21,407 bases of DNA from a virus. Under the pieces are notes generated by a model. The model ran no database searches. It saw only the letters and a list, made by a program, of their open reading frames with translations, and was not told the DNA's origin. Each line of letters opens with the position of its first letter. The first letter of the stretch is position 1. Positions 5,091 to 6,998 of the stretch are shown piece by piece. Both the position numbers and the translations under genes were made by a program. Location of the stretch: UHGV virus genome UHGV-0286550. One strand, given 5' to 3'.

Positions 5091-5423
5091 ATGGAACAGA
5101 TTGCCGTAAAAAAAGAAATTAAAGCACTACGGAATATCGGTCGTAATGGTTGTATTTATTTTAATGGAACCCCCGGTGAAATTATTCCGTTTGTTGATTG
5201 CTTCGTGCCGGGTGAACTGCGTATTGATTTATATTCCCGTGAACGGGAAATCAATGGAACCGGAAATACCAGCGACGACTGGGATGTTGATGAATGCTGT
5301 GCGCGATTAATGATTATTCCTTTTGAGCAGACTTTGCAGGGGTTTCGTCGGGCTTACCGCCTTGCACGCATGTGTGCCCACCTGCCCCGGTATCAGCCCC
5401 GACTGGCGTTTACGCTCAGATAA
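5091..5423 (+). CDS. Hypothetical early protein (110 aa), Cys-rich
   Basis: ORF with AAGG 7 nt upstream of the ATG. Bracketed by a 19-bp perfect direct repeat (5059-5077 and 5432-5450). No family recognised. Confidence 0.5.
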   Translation: MEQIAVKKEIKALRNIGRNGCIYFNGTPGEIIPFVDCFVPGELRIDLYSREREINGTGNTSDDWDVDECCARLMIIPFEQTLQGFRRAYRLARMCAHLPRYQPRLAFTLR

Positions 5424-5461
5424 TACAGCAGAGAAATGTTAATTCACTGATGGAGAACAAA

Positions 5462-5689
5462 ATGATGGAAAAGCAGGCCATTAATGCCGTCCGTTCCCGT
5501 GCCCGTGTGGCTATCCATACCACTGGCGGTCGCGTAACGGGGCAGCATCACCGTTTACCTGTGGTTTATGCCTGCCCGCCTGTGGGTGGTCCTGTATGGC
5601 CGGTAACGGAAATCGTTCAGACATTCAGCGGCCTGCGCCGCGTGGTTAAAACGTCCTGTATCGACGGCTGTACCGTCGTATGGCAATGA
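5462..5689 (+). CDS. Hypothetical early protein (75 aa)
   Basis: ATG at 5462 preceded by GGAGAA at 6-nt spacing. The ORF-track start at 5372 overlaps the previous gene and lacks an RBS. Confidence 0.45.
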   Translation: MMEKQAINAVRSRARVAIHTTGGRVTGQHHRLPVVYACPPVGGPVWPVTEIVQTFSGLRRVVKTSCIDGCTVVWQ

Positions 5690-5701
5690 GAGGAAATCAG
5701 A

Positions 5702-5917
5702 ATGGCGGTTAAATTAGAAGTAATTATCTATACCAATGAAAAAGGCGCGACTCTTACCCGGATTACAGGGAGTTATTCGAAGGATGGCACTTCCAAAAGG
5801 GAGCTTCAGGTGGCAACAGGATTACATGATGTTATCAAGGAAACGCTTAGAAATGACTATAACGGCGTGAATCTTTTTTCTGAAAACGTTGCGCCTCGCG
5901 CACATAACACACATTAA
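5702..5917 (+). CDS. Hypothetical early protein (71 aa)
   Basis: ATG with strong SD GAGAGGAAA upstream; tightly packed after the preceding gene. Confidence 0.5.
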   Translation: MAVKLEVIIYTNEKGATLTRITGSYSKDGTSKRELQVATGLHDVIKETLRNDYNGVNLFSENVAPRAHNTH

Positions 5918-5946
5918 TCTGTAAATATCACTGAGGTAATTTAATT

Positions 5947-6591
5947 ATGACGACTGAAAATAAAGTTAAGCAATACACGAAAACTCAAGCGCCTGAAGGT
6001 TACTGGGTGGATGCCCGTGGCGTAATGACACCTGAAAGCCTTATCAAAGATATTGACCGCGACCGCGAGCAGCTGGTCGGTGAGCTTGTGGAGATGGTGA
6101 TTGCTGCCTCCGCCTCGCTGCGGGAACTGAAACTGCGTGCGTTTGGTGATATCCAGGCATTTATTGACCTGTCGGCGGAGAAATACGGCGCTGTGAAAGG
6201 CGGCAAAAAAGGCAATATCACGCTTTACAGCTTTGACGGGCGATACAAGATTCAGCGCGCCATGCAGGACCGTATCGCGTTTGATGAACGCATTCAGACC
6301 GCGAAGTCGCTGATTGATGATTGCCTGGCTGACTGGACGGAAGGTGCGCGCCCTGAAATTAAAGCCATCATTAGCGAGGCATTCAGCACGGACAAGGAAG
6401 GCAACATTAACACAGGGCGCGTTCTGGCCCTGCGTCGCCTCGAAATTGAGGACGAACGCTGGAATAACGCCATGATGCTGATTGGTGAAGCCGTCCAGGT
6501 GATTGGCAGCAAGAGCTATATTCGTGTGTATGAGCGCGTTGGTGATTCTGATGAATACCGCGCAATCCCGCTTGATATTGCAGGGGTTTAA
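5947..6591 (+). CDS. Conserved Mu-like phage early protein (214 aa), possibly DUF3164-like
   Basis: Long ORF with SD GAGG 9 nt upstream; acidic, helical-looking protein. The family assignment is a recollection-level guess. It does not resemble Mu Gam. Confidence 0.55.
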   Translation: MTTENKVKQYTKTQAPEGYWVDARGVMTPESLIKDIDRDREQLVGELVEMVIAASASLRELKLRAFGDIQAFIDLSAEKYGAVKGGKKGNITLYSFDGRYKIQRAMQDRIAFDERIQTAKSLIDDCLADWTEGARPEIKAIISEAFSTDKEGNINTGRVLALRRLEIEDERWNNAMMLIGEAVQVIGSKSYIRVYERVGDSDEYRAIPLDIAGV

Positions 6592-6592
6592 C

Positions 6593-6826
6593 ATGCATCA
6601 GGATATCAAAGAGTACAGAGCCGGAAATCGTTGCGCGGCGTATTCGCTGGGTGCATCCAGAGCAGAACAACGCGGCGATTATGATGAGGCAGAAAAACTG
6701 TGGCGCAAGGCAGCGCAAAGCCCGTGTAGCACCCTGCGCCGCATCTGGGCTGAACATCGTGCGGAGTTCTGCGCTAACGCTCACCTGAAGGGCTGGAGGC
6801 CACGCCATGAATGCGAAGAACTTTAA
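6593..6826 (+). CDS. Hypothetical small protein (77 aa)
   Basis: ATG 2 nt after the previous stop (coupled). The ORF-track start at 6503 is an in-frame extension overlapping the upstream gene. Confidence 0.45.
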   Translation: MHQDIKEYRAGNRCAAYSLGASRAEQRGDYDEAEKLWRKAAQSPCSTLRRIWAEHRAEFCANAHLKGWRPRHECEEL

Positions 6827-6998
6827 TAAGCAGTATCCGGTAGGGACTCGCTTCATGCACACTGCACATCCGGCGTTGCGTGGTGGCCGTGTGGTGAAAA
6901 CCGTTTCACCTGCCAGAGATTTTAAATGTGGTTGTGTGGTTGAAATTAATGTCGAGCCTTATTTCGTTAAAATCGAAACACTGAAAGCACCGCATTAA
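6807..6998 (+). CDS. Hypothetical small protein (63 aa)
   Basis: ATG preceded by GGAGG at 7-nt spacing; overlaps the previous gene by 20 nt. Confidence 0.45.
   Translation: MNAKNFNKQYPVGTRFMHTAHPALRGGRVVKTVSPARDFKCGCVVEINVEPYFVKIETLKAPH

Follow-up and report, generated by a model that had tools for sequence, protein, structure and literature searches.

What takes the place of Gam in a Mu-like element that has no gam gene? Gam is a Ku-like dimer that caps the ends of linear double-stranded DNA and keeps RecBCD off them (PMC12407980). The question is raised by UHGV-0286550, a stretch of 21,407 nucleotides (nt), referred to here over its full length as the window, which comprises the left 21 kb of an Escherichia coli prophage of the Mu-like (transposable) kind. 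An initial annotation of the window had pointed to six open reading frames (ORFs) of 110, 75, 71, 214, 77 and 63 amino acids (aa) between the B gene and a DUF2786-like gene, and these were borne out by our ORF calls and by the Prokaryotic Genome Annotation Pipeline (PGAP). We found that the fourth, o4, is a DUF3164 family gene standing where related phages have Gam, and that the equivalence of DUF3164 and Gam, previously unremarked, is well supported by a comparison of Mu-like early regions. The six ORFs are as follows.

5091-5423, plus strand: o1, 110 aa, very small family, an optional accessory gene directly after B
5462-5689, plus strand: o2, 75 aa, Kil homologue (predicted host killing or septation inhibition)
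5702-5917, plus strand: o3, 71 aa, small protein of phrog_7438, from a block of variable gene content that precedes the Gam/DUF3164 slot
5947-6591, plus strand: o4, 214 aa, DUF3164 family, in the Gam slot
6593-6826, plus strand: o5, 77 aa, ANR-family small helical protein
6807-6998, plus strand: o6, 63 aa, small basic protein of phrog_5591

The initial annotation had recognised no Gam here, and our searches agree. None of the early ORFs matched the Gam family PF07352 in Pfam, and BLASTP with Mu Gam found no match among the ORFs of the window. When 20 diverse Gam sequences were used in tblastn and hidden Markov model (HMM) searches of all six frames of the window, no hit was obtained; the best match (E=0.03), 25 residues long, was antisense to a late gene. 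Nor is Gam annotated in the other parts of the prophage, which is 34.7 kb long as a whole. The absence of Gam from the prophage is therefore confirmed.

The o4 protein matched the DUF3164 profile PF11363 with an E-value of 5.5e-81 and 271.3 bits, against a gathering cut-off of 23.7, with residues 19-212 of the protein aligned to positions 1-193 of the 194 in the profile. It also matched phrog_846 (E 1e-93), and PGAP names it 'DUF3164 family protein'. Homologues that are 54-69% identical over their full length lie in the same early context in BcepMu (gp05), JBD25 (the PF11363 protein), Ab30 (ORF13), KS10 and Mannheimia 3927AP2, and o4, the E. coli version, is an ordinary DUF3164 family member. 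The family is large: at 90% identity it forms 3038 homologue clusters, relatives occur in 543 stretches of GTDB species-representative genomes, and it is present in many transposable phages of Pseudomonas, Burkholderia, Ralstonia, Vibrio, Haemophilus and enterobacteria.

Mutually exclusive occurrence of Gam and DUF3164

Gam and DUF3164 were called by tblastn at E<=1e-3. Matches to DUF3164 came from 211 phage records and those to Mu Gam from 139; among the 120 matches listed, the two sets shared no accession. The same was seen when loci were collected through either gene: Gam occurred in none of 80 DUF3164 loci from GTDB species genomes, and DUF3164 in none of 80 Gam loci from IMG/VR. We also collected loci through GemA, an anchor that favours neither gene. 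The results showed that, among the 64 GemA-anchored loci in which A or B was detectable, 39 had DUF3164 only, 23 had Gam only, none had both and 2 had neither (Fisher p = 2e-15 for exclusivity, ignoring phylogeny). Over all 240 Mu-like loci, DUF3164 was found in 123, Gam in 109, both in none and neither in 8, six of which lacked a detectable A or B. Gam is thus present in exactly those sampled Mu-like phages that are without DUF3164, bar the few that have neither.

The two genes also share their position. Of 108 loci, 107 have the gene between B and gemA and in the same orientation (73 of 74 for DUF3164 and 34 of 34 for Gam), which is the early-operon position that gam has in Mu.

The two loci of the GemA-anchored sample with neither gene are one phage sampled twice, L209 (IMGVR_UViG_7000000674_000102) and L210 (7000000673_000074). 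At about 3100-7800 it has the sole complete early region of that sample without Gam or DUF3164, and there it carries an ORF of 146 aa and another of 275 aa with an N-terminal CxxC motif; these ORFs might be a third alternative to Gam and DUF3164.

Exchange of the two genes in one slot

The Casadabanviruses Ab30 and MP29 show an exchange of the two genes between nearly identical flanks. Through ORF10-ORF12 the two genomes are 91-100% identical in each 100-column stretch of the alignment, up to the stop codon of ORF12, and 96-100% identity resumes at the start of ORF14; between these points the DNA identity is at chance level. In this interval Ab30 has DUF3164, and MP29 has Gam together with a short extra reading frame.

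Relatives of the E. coli prophage in IMG/VR carry Gam among the neighbours that DUF3164 has in the window. In L143, L142 and L148 the gene order is A-B-o1-Kil-small ORFs-Gam-ANR-o6-...-DUF2786-o8-o9-GemA-Mor, and the o1, Kil, ANR and o6 proteins of L143 are 78%, 65%, 53% and 79% identical, respectively, to those of the window. The Gam stop codon lies 2 nt before the ANR start in L143, and the DUF3164 stop codon lies 1 nt before the ANR start in the window. Either gene is followed by ANR and o6.

Exchanges of this kind have occurred repeatedly. Both gene types are found in phages of Pseudomonas, Enterobacterales, Pasteurellaceae and the Rhodobacter group, and a neighbour-joining tree of the B proteins from 134 unique loci requires at least 8 changes of state between Gam and DUF3164. 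When the B proteins were collapsed at 90% identity, 41 clusters had DUF3164 and 23 had Gam; at an identity of at least 70%, 2 of 28 B clusters contained both states.

Because DUF3164 occurs once in nearly every complete early region that lacks Gam, in the same place, and has been swapped with Gam repeatedly, we infer, with a slight leaning in its favour, that DUF3164 substitutes functionally for Gam without being homologous to it. The swap would then be isofunctional. It is also on this inference, from the Gam slot and the exclusivity with Gam, that the anti-nuclease function which the initial annotation had ascribed to the slot can be upheld for DUF3164 only. We found nothing else that would connect any of the six genes with anti-defence activity, and neither the six ORFs nor four neighbouring genes matched a defence-related model in PADLOC.

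The same comparisons bear on a different explanation, namely that Gam and DUF3164 mark alternative early modules that are swapped as blocks, and that DUF3164 does another job, either in replicative transposition or target handling with A and B, or in regulation. Some linkage within modules is suggested by o6, which was found in 36 of 43 DUF3164 loci but in only 3 of 29 Gam loci of the GemA-anchored sample. The block explanation would also fit DUF3164 having neither a sequence nor a structural hint of DNA-end binding. However, the linkage of the modules is not rigid, since in L142, L143 and L148 Gam stands beside the same ANR and o6 genes, and the exchange between Ab30 and MP29 is confined to one gene with near-identical flanks. 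Furthermore, exactly one of the two genes was present in 62 of the 64 complete early regions, which fits one required function rather than independent accessory genes. With this evidence on both sides, we regard an exchange of whole modules, with another role for DUF3164, as rather unlikely.

The B3-like phages H71 and H72 were considered as a second clean swap and rejected as such: their divergent block covers several genes, as expected if modules move as blocks, and the pair is kept as weaker support only.

Several points weigh against the reading of DUF3164 as a substitute for Gam. Measured from B, the median distance is about 0.6 kb to DUF3164 but 1.5-3 kb to Gam, so that the slot is defined by its neighbours in some lineages only; that DUF3164 lies on average nearer B than Gam does would also suit an exchange of modules. 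The segment swapped in MP29 holds, besides Gam, a small extra ORF fused to it. The exclusivity could reflect modular linkage or recombination hotspots instead of a shared function, and the sampled loci share phylogenetic history and so are not independent. With tblastn at the threshold used, Gam-like proteins of great divergence could escape detection, given that the Gam proteins of F8 and JBD30 are only 14% identical (PMC12407980). Finally, we found no functional statement on DUF3164 in the literature, and a 2026 paper still describes the family as uncharacterised after AlphaFold/Foldseek analysis.

The MP29 gene merits a separate remark. The 897-bp ORF13 of MP29 (L004, 3489-4385), annotated as 'host nuclease inhibitor', consists of Gam with a C-terminal extension, and the DNA of the extension resembles a separate small gene downstream of DUF3164 in H71 (L005, 4111-4506). 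The ORF13 annotation probably represents a fusion or a frameshift.

Structure and possible mode of action of DUF3164

DUF3164 does not appear to be a diverged Gam, because the profile-profile comparison of the two families with hhalign gave a probability of 0.2%, that is, no relationship; BLASTP likewise detected no homology to Mu Gam. For Gam (PF07352, phrog_491) a relative has been solved as PDB entry 2p2u. Neither the single DUF3164 sequence nor a DUF3164 profile found anything meaningful among PDB sequences. A model of o4 was made with AlphaFold2 (mean predicted local distance difference test score, pLDDT, 83.5), and when it was compared with PDB and BFVD no Gam or Ku structure was among the matches listed; the model thus gave no sign of a Ku-like fold. 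What the two proteins share, besides their position, is a similar size (174 aa for Mu Gam and 214 aa for o4) and a similar mildly acidic to neutral charge. The isoelectric point (pI) is 5.1 for o4, 5.8-6.0 for the DUF3164 proteins of Pseudomonas phages and 5.6-5.9 for the Gam proteins of Pseudomonas phages.

If DUF3164 does substitute for Gam, its target would be RecBCD or the DNA ends. We propose that it would shield linear phage DNA at its ends against RecBCD-type exonuclease, both after injection and during replication, and that it would do so with a fold unrelated to that of Gam, most likely as an oligomer built on a 46-residue helix.

A second way of replacing Gam is offered by lambda Gam, P22 Abc2 and T7 gp5.9, which are RecBCD antagonists acting by DNA mimicry. 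These would be possible functional analogues if DUF3164 targeted the nuclease, that is, if it bound and inhibited the enzyme and did not cap the ends. They belong to different phage types and show no similarity to DUF3164 in Pfam. The mild acidity of DUF3164 and its lack of a Ku-like fold would be in keeping with a nuclease inhibitor, but the Gam proteins of Pseudomonas phages are equally acidic, and DUF3164 is not strongly acidic as DNA mimics are; its composition does not suggest mimicry. A changed mechanism would best explain an escape from defences that sense end-bound Gam (PMC12407980). On the other hand, two roseophages have DUF3164 and no Gam, and the DUF3164 protein was found in the virion proteome of both (PMC5488378). 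Detection in virion preparations mildly favours an association with DNA, which is a better fit to end protection than to inhibition of the nuclease. On balance we consider direct inhibition of the nuclease unlikely.

Why Gam should be exchanged at all may be related to host defence. According to a 2025 preprint, Gam(Mu) and GemA of JBD30 each license the Gabija system to target the phage (PMC12407980). Since Gam licenses Gabija, exchanging Gam for another protein could be advantageous, although Gabija as the selective reason for the exchange is speculation. The proposal in its full form is that DUF3164 is a new, structurally unrelated family of end-protection proteins or RecBCD antagonists that has repeatedly replaced Gam in the transposable phages of Proteobacteria, with the alternation driven by Gabija-like defences that take Gam-bound ends as a licence for their attack; we put this forward tentatively and give it somewhat less than an even chance. 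As a side observation, the E. coli prophage retains GemA while it is without Gam.

The other early genes and the prophage

The initial annotation had placed the six ORFs in the semi-essential early slot of a Mu-like element. The order of genes bears this out: a CI-type repressor gene on the minus strand is followed by a Ner-like gene, the MuA-type transposase, the MuB-type ATPase, the six ORFs, the DUF2786/DUF7168 gene, six small ORFs, GemA, Mor, and the lysis, terminase and head genes. That the six genes form the accessory ('semi-essential') segment of a Mu-like prophage's early operon is essentially certain. Mu itself is a distant relative, with BLASTP identities of 23% for A and 32% for B. 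The features around the six ORFs are listed below.

2123-4165: MuA-type transposase
4184-5077, plus strand: MuB-like AAA+ transposition ATPase (Pfam AAA_22, E 9e-23, with an N-terminal helix-turn-helix), the upstream boundary of the six-ORF block
6999-7276: intergenic gap of 278 nt at the downstream boundary of the block, AT-rich in part and with a GC-rich hairpin near 7030-7055
7277-7987: DUF2786/DUF7168 gene
9635-10048: GemA

From B onward the genes are separated by gaps of 13, 38, 12, 29 and 1 nt, and the final pair, o5 and o6, overlaps by 20 nt. A purine-rich, Shine-Dalgarno-like motif is found 5-10 nt upstream of each of the six ORFs. The block is probably co-transcribed with A and B from the early promoter, and o6 is probably translationally coupled to the ANR gene. 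A scan of 4900-7400 for promoters and terminators gave no sites above the shuffled expectation, consistent with the block being part of a long early transcript, and an Rfam search of the region found nothing.

The same six coding sequences are called by RefSeq/PGAP in E. coli genomes that are 100% identical to the region. We compared o1 to o6 with a 93%-identical E. coli variant, and the ratios of nonsynonymous to synonymous substitution (dN/dS) were 0.11, 0.07, 0.58, 0.13, 0.13 and 0.26, respectively; against the distant relative L143 the ratio was 0.10-0.16 for o1, o2 and o6, the three for which it was measurable. Because of these low values, it is well supported that five of the ORFs are real genes under purifying selection. 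The case for o3 (0.58) is the weakest and is made less strongly. Antisense ORFs, such as one of 217 aa at 5941-6594 on the minus strand, were rejected as shadows of the DUF3164 frame, since it is the plus strand that has the family match and the purifying selection.

In related prophages, one or two additional genes (phrog_7741, DUF7448, and ORFs of 188 aa and 88 aa) stand at precisely the place of the gap of 6999-7276, which is therefore a hotspot for the insertion of accessory genes that is empty in this copy.

The initial annotation had called all six ORFs unrecognised and had expected functions in host interaction among them. The first claim does not hold for o2, o4 and o5, which belong to the Kil, DUF3164 and ANR families, but it stands for o1, which matches no database family, and for o3 and o6, which fall into PHROGs of unknown function. 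Host interaction is indicated by the family matches of o2 and o5, a Kil homologue and a putative regulator. The annotation would have given way if all six had proved to be known early proteins of Mu; instead, Kil is the one protein in common, and the PHROGs of Mu gp6-gp14 are entirely others. As a whole, the region is an ordinary and recurrent Mu-like early accessory operon, half of which can be assigned to known families.

The Kil assignment of o2 is based on a full-length match (E 3.3e-35) to phrog_2679, which is annotated as 'Kil protein for bacterial septation inhibition', with a second match to phrog_2743 (E 3.5e-3). BLASTP with Mu Kil showed 34% identity over the C-terminal 44 aa (E 7e-4), and Mu Kil itself matches phrog_2679 at 9e-5. 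Like Mu Kil (Mup05), o2 is a small basic protein of 74-75 aa that is encoded soon after B and has the same PHROG annotation; unlike it, o2 has a diverged N-terminal half, and its best PHROG is 2679 where that of Mu Kil is 2743. The kil gene of Mu acts on host division. Because of this homology, through the PHROG name and the role of kil in Mu, o2 presumably blocks host cell division in this phage as well.

Between B and kil the prophage has a gene, o1, that Mu does not have. It matched nothing in Pfam, PHROGs, NCBIfam or PADLOC, its structure model had no structural neighbour, and its family is very small: 5.8 billion proteins contained 8 clusters of it, and an exhaustive search gave 17 representatives. 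Members of the family lie directly downstream of B in 10 of the 10 viral loci found, even where they are only 33-52% identical. In otherwise 96%-identical E. coli prophages o1 is missing and kil follows directly after B. The gene o3 matches phrog_7438 (E 1e-46) and is the fastest evolving of the six; at its position related prophages carry three to four small ORFs in place of one. With its optional presence and narrow distribution o1, and with its fast evolution and variable block o3, have the population-genetic look of accessory or counter-defence genes.

It is because such traits are typical of counter-defence genes that they count towards an explanation, in line with the initial annotation, in which one or more of o1, o3 and o6 would be dedicated inhibitors of specific defence systems, similar to anti-CRISPR or anti-restriction proteins. 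None of the three, however, matches a characterised family in Pfam, PHROGs, NCBIfam or PADLOC, and the o1 model is without a structural neighbour to support such a role. The gene o6 (phrog_5591, E 4.7e-40; dN/dS 0.10-0.26) is broadly conserved with core early genes and not patchy. We therefore think it quite improbable that any of these genes encodes a dedicated inhibitor of a defence system.

The o5 protein passes the curated cut-off of the NCBIfam family NF033650, ANR_neg_reg, with 57.9 bits against 32 over residues 14-64, and is named 'ANR family transcriptional regulator' by PGAP. Like the ANR proteins Aar of enteroaggregative E. coli, Rnr and Cnr it is small, with helical, TPR-like matches: TPR matches below threshold in Pfam and matches to designed TPR proteins. 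Unlike them it is encoded in a phage early operon beside Gam or DUF3164 instead of beside a gene for an AraC/XylS regulator; since the annotation of the prophage includes no gene of that family, the context of a cognate activator was not found. Of 47 loci in which an ANR-like gene was detectable, 42 had it as the next gene after DUF3164 or Gam. Aar exerts its effect through binding to AraC-type activators and H-NS (PMC4983702, PMC5570504). By analogy, o5 would bind host regulators, either AraC-type activators or H-NS, rather than DNA. Because Aar binds H-NS besides AraC-type activators, it is plausible that o5 modulates host nucleoid proteins during the early development of this phage.

In strain 48956 the 34.7-kb element interrupts rhsC. 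The 1.9-kb six-ORF region is 100% identical to the chromosomes of several human E. coli isolates, and it was found in 58 of 5426 complete E. coli genomes at an identity of at least 80%, 57 of these at 90% or above. A megablast search of the region against 50,697 phage records gave no match, and the element is known as a prophage only. Three further observations concern the remainder of the window. At 29-67 on the minus strand, the host flank contains a JUMPstart RNA element (RF01707), which scored 58.5 bits where the gathering score is 35 and falls within a gene annotated by RefSeq as a truncated rhs core gene. An ORF of 136 aa at 8820-9230 on the plus strand has no family match; its N terminus resembles a signal peptide (VKKMVFVAALLTITQQVHA/SAA) and part of it is rich in Ala and Thr, and by these features it could encode a secreted or envelope protein of the early operon. 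In the late region, a DNA methyltransferase gene is found at 13124-13864 on the plus strand, between a DUF1804 gene and terL, with a possible anti-restriction function.

The comparative pattern described here gives a concrete hypothesis for DUF3164, a large family without an assigned function. If the hypothesis is true, DUF3164 would represent a second, non-Ku way of protecting linear phage DNA, a solution that would itself be new. There would also be implications for the sensitisation of phages to Gabija by Gam(Mu), for which MP29 and Ab30 form a natural, near-isogenic pair with Gam and DUF3164, respectively, and DUF3164 could join Gam-GFP as a tool for marking DNA ends. To our knowledge, the ANR family has so far been studied only as virulence regulators; the tie of ANR genes to the Gam/DUF3164 slot suggests that this family has a role in phages.

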